In this document: positions 18,623 to 27,539 of the stretch, in pieces
How positions within the stretch are numbered: position 1 is the first letter of the stretch
Layout of the letters: the number at the start of each line of letters is the position of its first letter
From: a bacterium
GTDB lineage: Bacteria > UBA8248
DNA length: 64,000 bases
Reading direction: 5' to 3'
Assembly: GCA_965221165.1 (NCBI GenBank)
Contig: CBDCRP010000003.1
Location: 1,856,001 to 1,920,000, forward strand
Notes under the pieces: generated by a model
The model's database searches: none
What the model was told of the DNA's origin: nothing
What the model saw: the letters and a program-made list of their open reading frames with translations, nothing else
Position numbers and translations under genes: made by a program

Positions 18623-20029
<1,407 letters not shown>

Positions 20030-20399
20030 GCGTCCGCTCCCATTTTGTTGAAATCCGGTTGAAATTCGCTTTGTTCTCGAAATGTTCGCTTTGGTGATGA
20101 GGTGAACCGCCTTCAAGAACATCAAGGGGGCATGACGCGCCAGACCGTCATCAGGTCGAGACGGAATTTGAGTCGGCATACGCCCCTCTAGGCTGGGCCG
20201 TGACTAGCGTACAGATGTGGCATTAGAGCATGGGGAGGGCGGCGATTCAAGAAAAAACTTTACCCGCTTCTTCCATCGCCGAGGCCTACTCACGCCATGC
20301 AGTTCTTCGGGATTCGAGTTTCACGGGTCATTTTCAGAAGTGGCGCAAGAGAAAGAAAAGGCCTGGCCCGCTCAGAGTTCTCGCAAGGCTCCTTGAAAC

Positions 20400-20999
20400 C
20401 TATGCAGACGGATTCGGCAGCGGCAAGAGGGCTTCGGCCTGGGAAACAATGGATTGCGGCTGACTCTGATCGGAGGACACGCGCGCCAGCACCCTGAGGC
20501 CGAGGAACAGGCCGAGCAGGGATTTCGCCGTCTGGTCCGGAACAACTTCCGGGCAGATTTCCCCACAGGCTTGGCCCCGCTCGATCGAAGCGCGAAGGAA
20601 GTCCTCCATGCCGGCGAATGCGTTGCCCACGAACGAGACCACCTCCGCATCGTGCAGCCCCAGTTCCAGGGCCGTGTTAACTTCGAGGCAGCCGTCGTGC
20701 GCACCGTTCTCTCCCGCGTCTGAGGCGGCGGCCTCAAACATGGACAGCACCGCTTCGCGCGGTGAGGGATGCTTTTCAAGCTCCGCAATCGGGTCTTCCC
20801 GGTAGATGCGGTCGTAATGACGCAGCACCTGAGCGAACATCTGACGCTTGTCACCGAACGCGTGGTAGAGGCTCCCGCGCAACAGGCCCGTGGCCTCCTC
20901 AAGATCACGGATCGAAGTCGCCGAGTATCCATGGCGCCAGAACCGGAACATCGCCTTCGTCAGTACTTCGTTCAATGCGACCTTTCGCAATTTTCCCAT
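20400..20999 (-). CDS. TetR/AcrR family transcriptional regulator
   Basis: FWRHGYSATSIRDLEEATGLLRGSLYHAFGDK HTH; GCLEVNTALE. Confidence 0.9.
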   Translation of the reverse strand: MGKLRKVALNEVLTKAMFRFWRHGYSATSIRDLEEATGLLRGSLYHAFGDKRQMFAQVLRHYDRIYREDPIAELEKHPSPREAVLSMFEAAASDAGENGAHDGCLEVNTALELGLHDAEVVSFVGNAFAGMEDFLRASIERGQACGEICPEVVPDQTAKSLLGLFLGLRVLARVSSDQSQPQSIVSQAEALLPLPNPSA

Positions 21000-21486
21000 A
21001 CTGTTCTCTCCTCGTGTTTTCTGCCGAGCCGCAAATTCCATGCTATGCCATTCCACAGATGCAGATCAAATCCTCGGAGCGCAGGGAGAATCCTGCACGG
21101 CCCGGGAGAGGGCAAGTTCCAGATGGGCGCAGCCTGCGAGTCGGGTTGCGGGGGTGAACTCGAAAGTTTCTTGATGGGCGCAGTCGCTTCAACGAGCGTC
21201 TCCCGGCCTGAGGCGTGCCGGACCACCAACGAGGCGAGTTGACGCTCATCACGGAGGAAAAAGCTCCACTGATGCAAAATGGAAACGGGTATAACGCCCT
21301 TCGGCGCACGCGGAGATGAGATCGTCCACGGTCTCACGCTGCGCGGCATCATGCGCCGGCAGGCTTCTCCCCCGCTACTCAGAACGAATACTTCATCACC
21401 AGGCCCAATCCCAAGGAACGGACGTTATCCATCTCGACGTCGTATAGAACCGGAGTGCCGCCGGGCGCGGTGAACGAGGAAAGAAT

Positions 21487-21517
21487 AAAAAAGCGCCCGC
21501 CGGACGGCGGGCGCTTT
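21487..21517 (-). terminator. Intrinsic terminator after the AhpD-like pair
   Basis: AAAGCGCCCGCC-GGAC-GGCGGGCGCTTT with A-run. Confidence 0.75.
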
Positions 21518-21534
21518 CACGTCAATGGCGAAAC

Positions 21535-22140
21535 TCAGGCGGGCAGGGGCACGTCTTTCCCGTAAATTTTCTCGGACTGCGCCTGCGTCACGACGTTTCC
21601 CTCCGGATCGTGTATGGGATAGGCCTTGAGCGTGCGCATGAAGACCTGGAGACCATAGTGAAGCGCCACCATCGCGCCGAGTTCCATGATCTGGGCTTCC
21701 GAGAAGTGTTTTTTGCCCTCGTCGTAGAATTCCTTGTCCAGCTTTTTGGCGTCTCGGTACATCCAGTAGGAATAGCGAAGCGCCCATTTCTCGGCGTCTG
21801 AGAACTGCGGGTCGTTCTCGAAATCCCCGCAGGCGGCCTCGATGCGCTTCTCCGTCAGGCCCTCTTTTTTCGCCTGCTCGGAGCGCAGGTTCGCGAAGTA
21901 GGTGTCCTGTGCGGTTCGGGCGAGCTGGATGCGGACCATCTCCTTGAGCTTGTGGTCCACCCCGCCCATGGCGTGGGAGCGGTGCATGGCGTCGTGCATG
22001 GCGGCGGCGTAGCCGGGCGCATGCGCCATGATGCGCGAGAACAACGCATCGGGCGCCTGGGTTTCGGCGGTGCGCTCCATGACGCGCATCCAGTTCTTAT
22101 CGTCAATCGCTTCGGGTTCGAGCGGCTCGATAATCGGCAT
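21535..22140 (-). CDS. AhpD/carboxymuconolactone decarboxylase-like protein lacking the redox motif (DTYF)
   Basis: VDHKLKEMVRIQLAR, FSDAEKWAL, HFSEAQIMELG; paralogue of the upstream gene. Confidence 0.8.
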   Translation of the reverse strand: MPIIEPLEPEAIDDKNWMRVMERTAETQAPDALFSRIMAHAPGYAAAMHDAMHRSHAMGGVDHKLKEMVRIQLARTAQDTYFANLRSEQAKKEGLTEKRIEAACGDFENDPQFSDAEKWALRYSYWMYRDAKKLDKEFYDEGKKHFSEAQIMELGAMVALHYGLQVFMRTLKAYPIHDPEGNVVTQAQSEKIYGKDVPLPA

Positions 22141-22149
22141 GTCTTCCTC

Positions 22150-22812
22150 CTAGCTTCCGTTGGCTTGCTGCGCTTCACCCTCTTCGAGAGCGCGGGCGAG
22201 CGGGCCGCTCAGGTGCGAGACGGGGCAATCCCCATAGATGCGGCGCGATTCCTCCTGGCTCACCAGCCGGCCGTCGGGGGAGAACATGGGGTAGAAATCG
22301 AGCGTTCTGAAAAAAGTGTGGTAGCCCACGTTGAAGCCGATGAAAGAGCCTAATTCCACGATTTCCTCATCCGAATAGTGGTCTCTGAGCCTCGCGTAGA
22401 AGGCCTCGTCAATCTTCTCGGGTTCTGAATCCATGAGCTCGCTGTATTCGAGAGCGAGTTTTTCGGCTTCGGTGAAATTATCGCTGTCGCTCCAGTTGTC
22501 GATGCCGTCGTCTATCAGCTCCTCGGTAAGGCCCGCCTGCTTCGCCGAAGCAGAACGCACGTTCCCTCAGTAGTTGCAAAAAGCGCGGCGCGAGAGTTGA
22601 ACGCGGATGATCTCCTTGAGCTTGTGGTCGATGACGCCGGTGTTGAACACCGTGCCCCAGGCGAGGTACATCGATTTCGCCAAGTCCTCGTTGTGGCCCT
22701 GCATGGCGTGAAAGGCCGGGTCGGGCGCGCGGTGCTTGAGCGCCTTGTTGACGAAAGGAGCCAGCTTCGTCTTCTTCAGGTCCCCGATGTCGAGCATGGT
22801 GATATTGGACAT
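22150..22812 (-). CDS. AhpD/CMD-like selenoprotein (CxxU; UGA at 22567-22569)
   Basis: ORFs 22567-22812 and 22150-22560 are in frame: RRAF-C-N-Y-TGA-GNVRSAS; both halves align to the neighbouring paralogue; hairpin follows the UGA. Confidence 0.85.
22534..22557 (-). promoter_or_regulatory. Putative bacterial SECIS hairpin
   Basis: mRNA CGUU-CUGCUUC-GGC-GAAGCAG-GCG; loop G about 21 nt after UGA. Confidence 0.65.
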
Positions 22813-22861: not shown

Positions 22862-24229
22862 TCAAGCGCCGCTCTCCGCCTGAACGCGGCGCAAGGCGGA
22901 GTCGAGGGCGGACGCTGCGCGCTCGGCCTCTTCTTCGGTAAAGACCAGCGGCGGGCTGATGGTGACGGTGTTCGAGGGACCCGCCGCGATGCCGGAGTTC
23001 TTGCCGAAAATAACGCCCGCCTCCTTGGCGTAGGCCAATACCCTGGAGGTGGCCGCCGTGGACAAGGGCGCGCCGCTCTCTTCTATCAACTCCACACCCC
23101 AGATGAGGCCCACGCCTCTAATGTCGCCCACGCAGGGGATGTCGGCGAGTTTCCCCAAAAGTCCGCCCAGGTAGGCGCCCACCTTCGCGCCGCGCGCGGG
23201 CAACTCCTCGTCCATCATGATTTCGAGATTCTTGAGCGAGGCCGCGCAAGCGGCGGGGTGCCCGCCGTAGGTGTTTATCTGCAGGAATCCCGAATCGCCC
23301 TCCGCGTTTAAAGCCTCGAATATTTCGTTCGTGGTCGCAGTCGCCCCGATGGGCAGGTAGGCGCTGCTCAGCCCCTTGGCCATCGTCATGATGTCCGGCT
23401 CGACCTCATAGAGATCGGAAGCAAATAGCTCCCCCGTGCGCCCGAATCCGGTGATGACCTCATCTGCGATGAACAACACGCCGTGGTTCCGGCACACCTC
23501 GCGCATGCGTTTCAGGTAATCCGCGGGCGGGGGAATCACCCCGCCGCCGCCGATGACGGGCTCCGCGATAAACGCCGCCACGGTCTCGGGGTCTTCGTAG
23601 CGGATGACCTCGTCGAGTTCGTCCACGCACCGCTGCGCCAATTCTTCTTCGGAGCCTGCGTTGCTGCGGTAGAAATAGGGGGCGCTCACGTGAATCACGC
23701 CCGGAAGGAGCGGTTCGAACATCGCGCGCCTGAGCGTCTGGCCGGTGAGGCTCGCGCCGCCGATGGTCGCCCCGTGATAACCCTGGTGGCGGGCGATGAT
23801 TTTATACCGCCTCCCGCCGTTCAGACGTCCATAGACGCGGGCCAGCTTGATGGCGGTGTCCACGGCTTCCGAGCCCGAGTTCACGAACCAGACGCGCTCG
23901 ACCCCCTCTGGCAGCAGGGAAGCGAGCCGCTTGGCGAGCCTGGCTGCCGGCGGGTTCACCTGCGTCAGCGGATAGTAGGCCAGTTCGAGCATCTGCTCGT
24001 ACGCCGCCCGGGCGACCTCGTCGCGCCCGTAGCCGATGTTCACGCACCAAAGCCCCGCCATGGCGTCGATGTATTCCTTACCGGAGGCGTCCTGGATGGT
24101 CGAGCCTTTGGCTTTGACCACGACGTCGAGGGGATTTTCCTCGATTCCGGAATGGTTCATGAGCGGATGCCAGACGTGCTCCTTGTCCATCGTCCGCAGG
24201 GATTCGGCTTCGGCTATGGCTGGGTTCAT
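22862..24229 (-). CDS. Class III PLP aminotransferase (omega-amino acid/amine type)
   Basis: AGLWCVNIGYG, NSGSEA, GYHG, FIAEP, IADEVITGFGRTG, MAKGLSSAY, TYGGHP. Confidence 0.92.
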   Translation of the reverse strand: MNPAIAEAESLRTMDKEHVWHPLMNHSGIEENPLDVVVKAKGSTIQDASGKEYIDAMAGLWCVNIGYGRDEVARAAYEQMLELAYYPLTQVNPPAARLAKRLASLLPEGVERVWFVNSGSEAVDTAIKLARVYGRLNGGRRYKIIARHQGYHGATIGGASLTGQTLRRAMFEPLLPGVIHVSAPYFYRSNAGSEEELAQRCVDELDEVIRYEDPETVAAFIAEPVIGGGGVIPPPADYLKRMREVCRNHGVLFIADEVITGFGRTGELFASDLYEVEPDIMTMAKGLSSAYLPIGATATTNEIFEALNAEGDSGFLQINTYGGHPAACAASLKNLEIMMDEELPARGAKVGAYLGGLLGKLADIPCVGDIRGVGLIWGVELIEESGAPLSTAATSRVLAYAKEAGVIFGKNSGIAAGPSNTVTISPPLVFTEEEAERAASALDSALRRVQAESGA

Positions 24230-24323: not shown

Positions 24324-25316
24324 CTAGCCCGGCGTATACTCGGGGCTTTCACTTTTGATTCGAAAGGCCTGGCGCCCGATACGCTGGATTTCGCCCTCTA
24401 TCAGGTCGCCCGGCTCCAGGTATTTCCCCCAAGAAGCGGCGTTGCCCGCAGGCGAGCCGGTGCCGATGATATCGCCCGTCCGCAGCGTGGCGATCCCGGA
24501 TAGATAGGATACCTGCTCGGCGACCCGCCAGACCATATCGCCCGTGGTGGCGTCTTGCCTGAGTTCTCCGTTCACCCAGAGCCTGAGCCTCAAATCGTGG
24601 GGATCCAGCCCTTCTTCGGGGAGCAGGATATAGGGGCCGATGGGAGCGAAGCCGTCCGGGGCCTTCATGGCGTACCAGTCGATGAACTTGCCCATGTTCA
24701 GGCTCGTGCGATCGCTCATGTCGTTGAACAGGGTGTAGCCGCCCACATGGTCCATGGCCCGTTCCACGGGAATGTTCTTGCCTCCCTGGCCGATGAGCAC
24801 GCCGAGTTCGAGTTCGTAGTCGAGCTTTTCCATCGAGGGATAGACGGGCACGTCCTCATTCGGGCCGCTCACGCATGTTGCGGGCTTCAAGAAACAATAG
24901 AGCGGGAGTTCCTCCTTGAAGTCATTCACCTCGATTCGCGCCATCTCGGCGGCATGGGCCACATAGTTCCTCGCCATACAAAACAGCGTGTCCGGAATGA
25001 CGGGAGGAAGAATCTCGACTTCTTCTGGTTCATAGACCACCTGCATCCCGTCGAAGCGAATCGGGTTTTTCCTGCGCCGGTGCTTCTTGAGGGCTTCGGT
25101 AGCTTCTTCCGCCAGGGGGCGGTTCATCTCCAGATCCTCGATGAATTCCTCACAATCCGCGGGCACTTCGGCTTCCGCCTGATCCATGGCCTCGGCCGCC
25201 GACTCATCATTCAGTGACAAGGCGTAGGCCATCTTGAGGTCGGCGATTTTCTCCCCGAACAAGACTCCTGTGCGCGCCTCGCCCCCCAGACTGAAAGTAC
25301 AGATTCTCATGACCAT
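24324..25316 (-). CDS. Fumarylacetoacetate hydrolase family protein
   Basis: NYVAHAAE, FLKP, LDYELELGV, GYTLFNDMSDR, GDIIGTGSPAG; start after GGAGG. Confidence 0.9.
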   Translation of the reverse strand: MVMRICTFSLGGEARTGVLFGEKIADLKMAYALSLNDESAAEAMDQAEAEVPADCEEFIEDLEMNRPLAEEATEALKKHRRRKNPIRFDGMQVVYEPEEVEILPPVIPDTLFCMARNYVAHAAEMARIEVNDFKEELPLYCFLKPATCVSGPNEDVPVYPSMEKLDYELELGVLIGQGGKNIPVERAMDHVGGYTLFNDMSDRTSLNMGKFIDWYAMKAPDGFAPIGPYILLPEEGLDPHDLRLRLWVNGELRQDATTGDMVWRVAEQVSYLSGIATLRTGDIIGTGSPAGNAASWGKYLEPGDLIEGEIQRIGRQAFRIKSESPEYTPG

Positions 25317-25453
25317 GAGCCTCCGTATCTTAAATGCGCGATAAAGGGGAATCCTAGCACAGGGACGCAGGCGATGGCGCATTGCTCCTGAAAGCGGGAG
25401 CCTGTCGGGAGAACAAATAGCATGAAATTTCAAGACTCCCGCTTCAAATGCTT

Positions 25454-26269
25454 TTATTCCGCTCTTCGGTGTTTGGAGAGAAAATCAAGAATCAGGCGAC
25501 GCGCGGTATCGTCCCGCGAGAGGTTGTGCTTCCGGCCCTCGAACAGATGGAATTCCATCTTCACGCCCCGCTTTCGGGTCTTGCGCAGACATTGATCGGC
25601 GGGCCTGTTCCGCCGCCAGGGGTCGTCCTCCGAGTACAGCGCGAGCACGGGCGTCCCGCGTGGCGAGCGAACGCCGCGCCAGCATACGGAGCCTGCGATG
25701 ACGTGGGCGGCAAACTCATCCCCCTCATAGGCGGCGACCGCGGTGCCGCCCTGGCTATGTCCCACCAGGAACAGGTTTTTCCGGTCCACCCAAGGGATGC
25801 GCCGAACCCGATAAGCCGCGTGATGAATTTCCTCTTGCCGCATCCGGTTCACCCGCCTGTGAGGCGCTCCTTTTATGCCCCGGTGCCGGGAGGGATTGCA
25901 GGTCTCGGGCCGATAGCGGCGGGCGAAGCTGTCGGGAGCGATTACGGCGTATCCCGCCCGCGCGAGCACTCGCATGTAGCGCAAATTCCCGCGACCAAGC
26001 CCCGCGCAGCCGTGCGCGAAAACGACGGTGGCGCGTTTTTTCTTGAGTCCCGCAAGTTTTCCCTGAACGAATTTATCGCTCATCCTGCCTTCGATGAACG
26101 CATCGCCTATCCGAATCATGAAATAGGCGGAATCGAAGGTGCGTCTTGCTTCATCGTACAAATCGAGGGTTTTGGGGTTCAGTCTTTCGAGCGCTTCAGC
26201 GCCGAAGTGTCCATTTCCCCCAAAAAGAAGAAAACAAACCATCGCCAGGATGAAACCAGAATGCCGCAT
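25454..26269 (-). CDS. Exported dienelactone-hydrolase-like alpha/beta hydrolase
   Basis: Signal peptide, HGCAG, GYAVIAPDSF, GHSQGG. Confidence 0.75.
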   Translation of the reverse strand: MRHSGFILAMVCFLLFGGNGHFGAEALERLNPKTLDLYDEARRTFDSAYFMIRIGDAFIEGRMSDKFVQGKLAGLKKKRATVVFAHGCAGLGRGNLRYMRVLARAGYAVIAPDSFARRYRPETCNPSRHRGIKGAPHRRVNRMRQEEIHHAAYRVRRIPWVDRKNLFLVGHSQGGTAVAAYEGDEFAAHVIAGSVCWRGVRSPRGTPVLALYSEDDPWRRNRPADQCLRKTRKRGVKMEFHLFEGRKHNLSRDDTARRLILDFLSKHRRAE

Positions 26270-26306
26270 TGCTGAAAAACCGCAGACTTCGCTCACTATG
26301 AACCCC

Positions 26307-27539
26307 CTAGACGACGCCCTCATCTTCGAGTTCCTTTAGCTCCGCATCCGACACTCCGAGCAGACCGCCGAGGATTTCCCCGTTGTGCTGGCCCACGAGC
26401 GGTGCGGGGGAGGCGTAGCCGCCTTTGATTTCACTGAACTTGAGAGGAAAACCCGGCGCCTTCGCGCTGGTGAGCGCTCCGAGCGTGGGGTGTTCGATAT
26501 CGACTATCATCCCGCGCTCTTGCATGTGGGGCCAGGAGAGGATGTCGTCGATATTGTTCACCGGCCCGCAGATGACGTCGTGCGCGCGCAGGGAGGAGAC
26601 CGCCTCTTTCGTCTCACGCCGCTTCGTCCAGTCGGTGATGAGGCCGTCGACCTCCTGGTGTTTGCTCACGCGCCGGCTCATGTCCTCGTATCGCTCATCG
26701 TTGATGAGTTCGGCACGCTCGATGCCGCGCAATATGTTGTGCCAGTGCGCGTTGGTTCCCGAGGCGATGATGACCCAGCCGTCTTTCGTCTCATAGGCGT
26801 TGAAGGGAGCGAGCCGCATGATGCGGTTGCCGATACGGGGTGGAAGCCCGAGCCGTTCGTAGCAATCCATCGGCTCATCGAAGATTAAGGAAAAGATGCA
26901 GTCGATCATCGAAATGTCGACCTGCTGGCCCTTGCCCGTCCGCTCGCGGTGAAAGAGCGCCGTCATGATGGCGCCGAAGGCGAACGTGCCGCCCACGCTG
27001 TCACCCAGGGCGGAACCCGCCTTGGTGGGCGGGCCGTCGGGAAATCCCGTCAGGTTCATCAGACCAGACGCAGCCTGGGAAACGGCGTCGTAGCCCTTGA
27101 GCCCCGCATCCGGCCCCGTCTGCCCGTAGCCCGTGATGGAGCAGTAGACCAGGGAAGGCTTGCGTGTATGAAGCGTCTCGTAGTCGATCTTGAGCCTTTT
27201 GGTGACGCCGACGGAGAAATTCTCCACTAGGATATCGGAGCGATCGACGAGTCCATAGAACATCTCGAGACCCCGGGGGTCCTTGATGTTGAGGGTAATC
27301 GCTTTTTTCGCGCGCGTGCGCTTCAGGTAGGCCATCCCTATGTCCTCATCCGTCTGGGGATGATAGGAGACGCCTTTTGCGCCGATATAGGGAGGGGAGT
27401 AGGCCACCGGATCGCCCGTGGCCGGATTATCGATGCGGATGACCTCGGCCCCCAGACCCGCCAGGAAAAGCGTGGCTTGGGGACCCGAGAGAAACTGTGT
27501 GAGATCCAGGACGCGAATGCCTTCGAGTGGCTTTGTCAT
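26307..27539 (-). CDS. CaiB/BaiF family III CoA-transferase
   Basis: PLEGIRVLDLTQFLSGP, DILVENF, CSITGYGQTGP, GYD, APLVGQHN. Confidence 0.93.
   Translation of the reverse strand: MTKPLEGIRVLDLTQFLSGPQATLFLAGLGAEVIRIDNPATGDPVAYSPPYIGAKGVSYHPQTDEDIGMAYLKRTRAKKAITLNIKDPRGLEMFYGLVDRSDILVENFSVGVTKRLKIDYETLHTRKPSLVYCSITGYGQTGPDAGLKGYDAVSQAASGLMNLTGFPDGPPTKAGSALGDSVGGTFAFGAIMTALFHRERTGKGQQVDISMIDCIFSLIFDEPMDCYERLGLPPRIGNRIMRLAPFNAYETKDGWVIIASGTNAHWHNILRGIERAELINDERYEDMSRRVSKHQEVDGLITDWTKRRETKEAVSSLRAHDVICGPVNNIDDILSWPHMQERGMIVDIEHPTLGALTSAKAPGFPLKFSEIKGGYASPAPLVGQHNGEILGGLLGVSDAELKELEDEGVV

Follow-up and report, generated by a model that had tools for sequence, protein, structure and literature searches.

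A selenocysteine-containing AhpD/CMD-fold protein encoded next to a conserved cysteine-less paralogue: a putative two-subunit selenoenzyme

Here we describe two adjacent genes, A and B, found in a 64,000-nucleotide stretch (the window) of contig CBDCRP010000003.1 from the UBA8248 bacterium with assembly GCA_965221165.1 (positions 1,856,001 to 1,920,000 of the forward strand). Both genes are read from the minus strand, as are the features within and directly behind the pair that are given below in window coordinates. Gene A (22150..22812) is a frame of 220 codons with a single internal TGA, which comparative sequence data identify as a selenocysteine (Sec) codon, so that the predicted product is an AhpD/CMD-fold selenoprotein with a CxxU motif. 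Gene B (21535..22140) encodes a 201-aa Cys-less paralogue of the same fold, in which this motif is replaced by DxxF. The comparison of loci supports the view that the DxxF gene specifically accompanies the CxxU gene. We suggest that A and B together constitute a two-subunit AhpD/CMD-fold selenoenzyme, with a scheme leading from Sec insertion to a hetero-oligomer; we hold this for the best explanation of the data and favour it with moderate confidence. The layout and motif pattern lies, at the sequence level, far beyond chance, because the TGA is kept in 159/159 homologous loci and six residues of the B motif region are invariant.

Gene A corresponds to two table-11 open reading frames (ORFs), 22567..22812 (81 aa, ending in ...RRAFCNY) and 22150..22560, which belong to one frame interrupted by the TGA at 22569..22567 and closed by the TAG stop at 22152..22150. 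The frame reads ...RRAF-C79-N-Y-U82-GNVRSASAKQAGLTE, with G-N-V-R-S-A-S-A-K-Q-A-G-L-T-E after the Sec codon, and the putative redox motif C79-N-Y-U82 occupies 22567..22578. A GGAGG ribosome-binding site for B (22146..22150) overlaps the last base of the A stop codon, and the ATG of B at 22140 leaves a gap of 9 nt between the two genes. The proteins share 39% identity over 172 residues (67/172, E 4e-44). The B motif D79-T-Y-F82, in the context ...RTAQ-D79-T-Y-F82-ANLRS, is encoded at 21895..21906. Behind B lies an intrinsic terminator (21489..21518) with a 13-bp stem, 9 G-C pairs and a following T-run. An earlier note on this DNA had described one TGA-broken frame in place of two ORFs, a close paralogue with DTYF 9 nt further on and a terminator behind it, and all three were recovered when the letters were read again. 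B is co-transcribed with A and probably also translationally coupled to it. Two Rfam small-RNA matches at 21478-21551 (mmgR/suhB with 24.9 bits and Atu_C9 with 23.3 bits, gathering thresholds 41 and 40) coincide with the terminator hairpin and probably arose by chance.

Conservation of the codon was followed in two sets of loci. The B-anchored search, with one genome per species, used the best 80 of 230 relatives; the A-anchored search of metagenomes used the best 80 of 403 relatives, which are 79-91% identical to its query, a protein with W at the Sec position. The 159 loci of both searches hold full-length A orthologues with 60-96% identity. The codon aligned with U82 is TGA in 79/79 B-anchored genome loci with a complete A, the 80th locus being cut by a contig end, and in 80/80 A-anchored metagenome loci, where it is never TGG. 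The Cys three positions before Sec is invariant in the loci examined. Exactly one TGA is found in the A match of all 29 genomes that have an A-type match among 40 relatives (G000, the genome of the window, counted), and the 22 same-genus relatives searched are all among them. Homologues with Cys in place of Sec, which the earlier note had envisaged, do exist as distant CxxC relatives (C-x-[YF]-C-G-x-x-R-S), ~30-40% identical to A and about as distant from it as B is. These are the sole Cys forms found: no Cys-form A orthologue of at least 60% identity is present in the 159 loci or among the best 120 of 253 protein matches.

Seven near-full-length database homologues (P0003-P0007, P0010 and P0026) print W at the Sec position, as C-x-Y-W-GNVRS, and all of them come from contigs of at most 1.4 kb. 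Because the contigs are so short and the 80 metagenome loci with 79-91% identity to a W protein carry TGA, the printed W is probably a gene-calling artefact of translation table 4. Trp at this place, which the earlier note had counted as a point against Sec, would thus stand for TGA and not for TGG. Two distant relatives, P0302 (376 aa) and P0386, also print C-x-x-W. P0302 does so in each of its two CMD-like halves (C-E-Y-W and C-P-E-W) and may be a double-Sec two-domain protein that has been mis-read alike.

The same genome (3.69 Mb, 3 contigs) encodes the Sec machinery on which the earlier note had made its reading depend, with selA, selB, selC and selD all above the curated cut-offs: selA scores 564.2 bits (cut-off 268), selB 383.8 bits (242), selD 329.8 bits (125) and the tRNA-Sec gene selC 75.9 bits (47). 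The selD gene of G000 (C2:975065-976027) has an in-frame TGA of its own and would itself encode a Sec-containing selenophosphate synthetase.

Downstream of the TGA we find a hairpin of the Sec insertion sequence (SECIS) type, which lies within the codons for S-A-S-A-K-Q of A. Its core, CUGCUUC-GGC-GAAGCAG (22537..22553), has a 7-bp stem and the loop GGC, and a weaker lower stem extends to ~22521..22570. Bacterial SECIS elements follow rules of spacing from the UGA and carry a G in the apical loop. Gene A shows this combination, namely an in-frame UGA and a downstream hairpin with G in its apical loop, which begins 21 nt after the UGA. A search of the hairpin against Rfam returned no matching family.

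Comparison of 72 distinct sequences shows how the stem varies. At the second stem pair (columns 24-38), 37 sequences have U-A, 35 have C-G and 0 are unpaired, and the C-G form requires a Gln-to-Arg change in the A protein. Four of the remaining six stem pairs are invariant, one becomes U-G in 1 sequence, and the G-C pair of columns 25/37 is unpaired (G-G) in 6/72 sequences, which form a Rhodospirillales subgroup. The covariation count, 53 cells with both sides of a pair changed, is reached by 0/500 shuffles and lies above all slid registers, for a structure that had been taken from a sequence within the same set. At the four-fold wobble sites of GCU, UCG and GCG (codons +6, +7 and +8), which belong to the upper stem and apical loop, 79/79 sequences carry the same base, and 27 other conserved four-fold sites of A have a mean entropy of 1.36 bits with a minimum of 0.73. 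The frozen wobble sites therefore point to selection on the RNA, as expected of a SelB-binding element. Hence, with the codon conserved, the SECIS-type hairpin covarying and the full Sec machinery encoded in the genome, we assign the TGA of gene A to Sec.

We next consider the fold of the two proteins. The Pfam CMD model gives 27.6 bits for A and 22 bits for B at a cut-off of 23. The predicted structure of B is all-helical and confident, with a predicted local distance difference test (pLDDT) of 91.4 and a predicted template-modelling score (pTM) of 0.88. In a Foldseek search this model matches Bmp8 best (template-modelling score, TM, 0.72/0.77), followed by P. aeruginosa PA0269/AhpD and AhpD-core peroxidase-related proteins, and the TM values for Bmp8, PA0269 and the AhpD-core structures span 0.53-0.79. 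For A, the AhpD/CMD fold is assigned from its Pfam CMD match and its 39% identity to B. In the sequence alignment C-A-Y-C-V-N-M-H of PA0269 and C-M-Y-C of Bmp8 fall on D-T-Y-F-A-N-L-R of B; aligned through B, C79 and U82 of A therefore sit at the CxxC positions and Arg86 at the His position. A thus has Sec in place of the second Cys of CxxC, the feature that marks AhpD-like/CMD-like CxxU selenoproteins. The ESM Atlas returned only CMD clusters of the 'hypothetical protein' kind, and both A and B lie far under every cut-off of the curated NCBIfam models. The best of these, NF053654 'YciW-related (seleno)protein', scores 68.1 bits for A and 43.4 bits for B against 310, and TIGR01926 'peroxidase-related enzyme' scores 35.5 bits for A against 81.8 and does not match B; with scores so far under the cut-offs, A and B are not members of either family.

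B has lost both redox residues and has kept a motif of its own. D79, Y81, F82, L85, R86 and S87 never vary among 16 diverse B sequences, and across these 16 sequences from several phyla 43 columns are invariant in all. D-x-[YH]-F is read in 61/63 metagenome B genes; in the other two (L119 and L182) the tblastn match stops before the motif. The invariant replacement motif therefore suggests that B is under its own selection. B also keeps the residues that surround the redox site of A (H63, E67, R70, R75, Y81, R86 and S87), and it has 609 relatives in the protein collection. The earlier note had pointed out that both proteins have Arg where AhpD-family proteins usually carry His. Arg86 is indeed present in A and B, but it is not special to the pair, as the CxxC relatives share it. 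In a survey of 150 B-profile representatives, of which 102 are readable and the rest too gapped at the motif, the first Cys is paired with Arg in 33 and with His in 2, so that Arg at the His position is a clade-wide feature. The survey alignment is gapped at the second Cys, and the raw sequences of the Arg relatives read C-x-[YF]-C there, for example C-E-Y-C-G-N-Q-R-S.

The pair itself is conserved and syntenic, which the earlier note had left to comparison with other genomes. Gene A immediately precedes B in 79/79 complete B-anchored loci. These represent at least six lineages, and their records name Nitrospinota, Tectomicrobia, Rhodospirillales/Rhodospirillaceae, Defluviicoccus, Acidimicrobiia, SAR324, and Burkholderiales with other Betaproteobacteria; none of these 79 loci has the DxxF gene apart from the CxxU gene. 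In the opposite direction, B follows A in 63/67 evaluable A-anchored loci (62 with separate genes, 1 fused), the other 13 of the 80 ending too early for the presence of B to be judged. The gap between the genes is at most 49 nt in 71/78 separate pairs, and in several pairs the stop of A and the start of B overlap (gaps of -1, -4 and -10 nt). In L097 the distance from the A stop, a TGA, to the B start is 471 nt in the same frame. This locus may hold a fusion that has decayed or been mis-read, or else its B may be greatly extended at the N terminus.

In-frame A-linker-B fusions are present at the DNA level in L080 (SAR324, 426 aa, with both motifs) and L196. Among the best 120 database protein matches 13 are of fusion size (281-371 aa), and all 11 of them that were read consist of the segment of A behind the TGA, followed by a low-complexity linker and by B with D-x-[YC]-F. 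For one naturally fused database protein the model reaches a pTM of 0.72 with 60/342 residues disordered, which hints, if indirectly, at a defined packing of the two parts. Foldseek with this model returned no two-domain template beyond weak Sestrin2 matches (TMq 0.48). Taken together, the indirect evidence of the fusions, the adjacency and the natural-fusion model makes an A-B heteromer likely in our view.

The A and B trees share 35/76 splits, the mean for permuted labels being 0.25 shared splits of any support, and 20/23 well-supported splits of the A tree reappear in the B tree. We note that this agreement speaks for joint inheritance or transfer only, as expected for linked genes, and not for binding. 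In RNA libraries, contigs of relatives with 92-96% identity span the A-B junction (X2 record 7, X1 record 3 and X7 record 10), and X2 record 7 and X7 record 11 run across the TGA. The support for expression is weak, because these are contigs only and such libraries may contain DNA; the relatives account for just a small part of the sampled words (0.04-0.10), so that uncovered stretches are uninformative.

Hence, we propose the following scheme. UGA-82 of A is read as Sec, directed by the SelB-type hairpin within the S-A-S-A-K-Q codons, and the resulting C79-x-x-U82 centre lies where AhpD has its CxxC. B keeps the fold and the residues around the centre, with Asp and Phe instead of Cys and Sec. 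A and B would assemble at least into an A-B dimer, similarly to the homo-oligomers of the CMD fold. In M. tuberculosis AhpD the nucleophile is at the second position of CxxC. We suggest that U82 of A is the attacking nucleophile, with C79 resolving a selenenyl-sulfide intermediate. B would provide the non-redox half of the dimer, with a substrate-binding or scaffolding pocket. The reaction would be the reduction of a small electrophile, e.g. a hydroperoxide or a disulfide-type substrate.

Several observations weigh against this scheme. The adjacency, the coupling and the fusion would also fit two enzymes of one pathway. Four A-anchored loci (L150, L162, L167 and L194) extend at least 1300 nt after A without B downstream, and the B-anchored set is by its construction unable to reveal an A without B. 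These four are betaproteobacteria-like metagenome contigs whose A has the TGA, and A is followed there by a gene similar to cobalamin-independent methionine synthase (MetE) in 3/4 and to 6-pyruvoyl-tetrahydropterin synthase (PTPS) in 1/4. The genes near the pair in 20 loci give no consistent clue to the substrate. No AhpC-type peroxiredoxin (AhpC-TSA) occurs among the 145 neighbouring ORFs of these 20 loci, and it is absent also among the scanned genes of the window, the search having covered the neighbourhoods and not the rest of the genome. Finally, the fold energy of the hairpin region in the single sequence is ordinary (z -0.52, with 51/200 shuffles folding no less stably); the case for the hairpin is made by the comparative data and not by this energy.

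The alternative which survives best is that A is a self-sufficient homo-oligomeric selenoenzyme and B a separate non-redox CMD enzyme or binding protein of the same pathway, with the genes adjacent and sometimes fused for co-regulation rather than for the formation of one complex. We consider it possible but rather doubtful. The CMD family includes non-thiol decarboxylases, and the invariant polar and aromatic set of B (D79, Y81, F82 and R86) could be an active site of its own. Fusion of consecutive pathway enzymes is common, B is missing from the 4/67 A-anchored loci described above, and the solved relatives (PA0269, Bmp8 and AhpD-core proteins) were deposited as several copies of a single chain type. 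However, B never occurs without A in the 79/79 loci, and the pair stays constant while the surrounding genes vary. Moreover, the two paralogues share a fold that acts as dimers or higher oligomers, and the residues framing the redox site of A are retained in B.

A more far-reaching version of the two-subunit enzyme would be an obligate heterodimer in which A, for which no Cys orthologue of at least 60% identity was found, performs a chemistry that needs selenium, in which the pocket of B has been rebuilt (Asp/Tyr/Phe/Arg) for the substrate and which performs a non-peroxide chemistry, such as carbon-heteroatom cleavage of the Bmp8 or deiodinase kind, and has spread horizontally through at least six lineages; we regard this version as unlikely. 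That B is merely a decaying, functionless duplicate of A is hardly credible: it has lost both redox residues and its Pfam CMD score falls just under the cut-off, but B is intact in all loci examined, its invariant columns include the replacement motif, and its 609 relatives and confident fold speak for a maintained protein. Equally improbable is that the TGA really ends translation, encodes Trp or marks a pseudogene, so that the products would be of 81 aa and 136 aa or a Trp protein: W is printed in the seven homologues and gene callers split A into two ORFs, but the codon is TGA and never TGG in the metagenome loci and TGA throughout the genome loci of table-11 lineages, the frame flanking it is better conserved than B (mean pairwise identity 74% for A vs 61% for B), the hairpin downstream covaries and the genome encodes the Sec machinery.

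The two-subunit selenoenzyme that we favour can be placed among known systems. AhpD-like selenoproteins have a long record: the AhpD-like protein (COG2128) and CMD domain-containing protein (PF02627) selenoproteins were reported from the Sargasso Sea in 2005 with 27 sequences (PMC1088965), 'AhpD-like 1/2' followed in the GOS data in 2008, where AhpD-like 1 has 299 sequences (PMC2398784), and AhpD-like CxxU selenoproteins are included in a 2026 review (PMC13188914) and in BSepDB (PMC13326102), as given in the accessible text of these sources. A shares with them the AhpD/CMD fold, CxxU at the CxxC position, a UGA with a downstream hairpin and the presumed thiol/selenol redox function. Unlike them, A passes no curated subfamily model, carries Arg for His and is tied to a Cys-less paralogue, a partner that does not appear in the accessible parts of their descriptions. 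The earlier note knew of no description of such a pair, and a search of full-text literature, outside subscription journals and supplementary files, returned no account of a Sec AhpD-like protein paired with a Cys-less paralogue either. Thus, the AhpD-like CxxU selenoprotein itself has been known since 2005, and what is new is the conserved and occasionally fused pair of a Sec protein and its Cys-less paralogue.

The chain of M. tuberculosis AhpD contains two CMD-like halves with CxxC in one only, and the arrangement of A and B mirrors these two halves with one CxxC. AhpD of this type (1gu9, 1knc), which reduces AhpC, shares the fold family with A and B. Unlike in AhpD, the active and inactive units are here separate genes, the His of its CxxCxxxH is Arg86 in both A and B, and no AhpC-type neighbour was found among the 145 ORFs of 20 loci; hence neither the catalytic His nor an ahpC in the neighbourhood, the two marks of the M. 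tuberculosis type, is found. The structural likeness is weak (1gu9, TM 0.25/0.45 with the fusion model).

Also comparable are the bacterial AhpD-like fused dimers with a cysteine-less 'pseudo-domain' and the eukaryotic Sestrins (PMC11429811), which, in the accessible text of that paper, combine an active unit with a Cys-less paralogous unit as the pair does. The A-B fusions in SAR324 and Betaproteobacteria are parallel to them. However, in our case the active unit is a selenoprotein, B has the invariant Asp and Phe rather than a simple loss, and the units are mostly separate, translationally coupled genes of ~200 aa each.

Bmp8 (PDB 6ohi, 6ohj), a debrominase, is the best structural match of B, has a similar length (~190 aa) and agrees with it in the position of the motif, but the identity is just 18-23% and Bmp8 has neither Sec nor a partner paralogue. 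Its proposed mechanism, according to the accessible text, includes oxidation of the cysteines to a disulfide (PMC5577590). A Bmp8-like dehalogenase function was considered and not adopted: in structure B resembles Bmp8 no more than it does AhpD-core proteins of a generic kind, and the neighbourhood lends no support, with no halogenase or bmp-type neighbours among the 145 ORFs of 20 loci.

The surroundings of the pair vary between lineages. Upstream of A the window contains a class III (omega-) aminotransferase gene (22862..24229, minus strand, Pfam Aminotran_3 8e-96) and an FAA-hydrolase-family gene (24324..25433, minus strand, Pfam FAA_hydrolase 8.3e-62), both of which are lineage-specific context. 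The aminotransferase is found upstream of A in 28/80 B-anchored loci and an FAA-hydrolase-family orthologue (65-90% identity) in 21/80; all these loci belong to Nitrospinota, Tectomicrobia or their relatives, and the aminotransferase occurs in 0 proteobacterial, Acidimicrobiia or SAR324 loci among the 80. The link to the aminotransferase drawn in the earlier note thus does not hold as a general feature. Elsewhere, among 20 loci, the neighbours are hydantoinase/oxoprolinase genes (5/20), an alpha/beta hydrolase just upstream (3/20) and, variably, RidA, SDR, FAH, DUF1989, cupin and MarR genes, and no conserved third gene was found in these 20 loci. Since the neighbours vary while the pair stays, the A-B cassette is self-contained, and it appears to have moved between phyla as a unit. 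Further along the window, a dienelactone-hydrolase-family gene (25454..26323) lies upstream of the FAA-hydrolase-family gene, and on the 3' side of the terminator a TetR-family regulator (20400..21056) and an ammonium transporter (18623..20179) are encoded on the same strand.

The G000 genome as a whole is rich in selenoproteins and has a large AhpD/CMD expansion: there are 23 CMD-domain matches, 10 of which, gene A included, have one in-frame TGA. This fits the counts in BSepDB, whose accessible text gives 48-54 selenoproteins for 'Nitrospinota' metagenome-assembled genomes of the UBA8248 group (PMC13326102). A 434-aa frame at C2:1134575-1135684 holds three CMD domains. On the third contig (G000:C3 ~954619-955455; L197:819-1655, minus strand) a single frame of 278 codons reads A-C-E-Y-U-I-D-S-H in its first CMD domain, i.e. 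the canonical CxxUxxxH. In the DNA search its C-terminal part matches CMD weakly (17.9 bits, cut-off 23), and it has no CxxC or CxxU at the corresponding place (...N-G-S-K-Y-F...); with Pfam on the translated protein the first CMD domain alone scored. If the second domain is real, this protein would be a fused arrangement of an active and an inactive unit in one selenoprotein.

Last but not least, few bacterial selenoprotein families are as abundant in ocean metagenomes as the AhpD-like proteins, and we know of none among these whose substrate or quaternary structure has been established. Current databases do not show the pair, because gene callers split A in two or read its TGA as Trp. The subfamily described here gives a testable handle on the question, since it combines a Sec subunit, for which no Cys-form orthologue was found, with a conserved Cys-less partner that has an invariant replacement motif. 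If A and B are indeed one enzyme, this would be a bacterial selenoenzyme built of a catalytic subunit and a pseudo-catalytic paralogue, parallel to the active and inactive halves of AhpD and Sestrin, and the selenoprotein A would need to be expressed together with its partner B.

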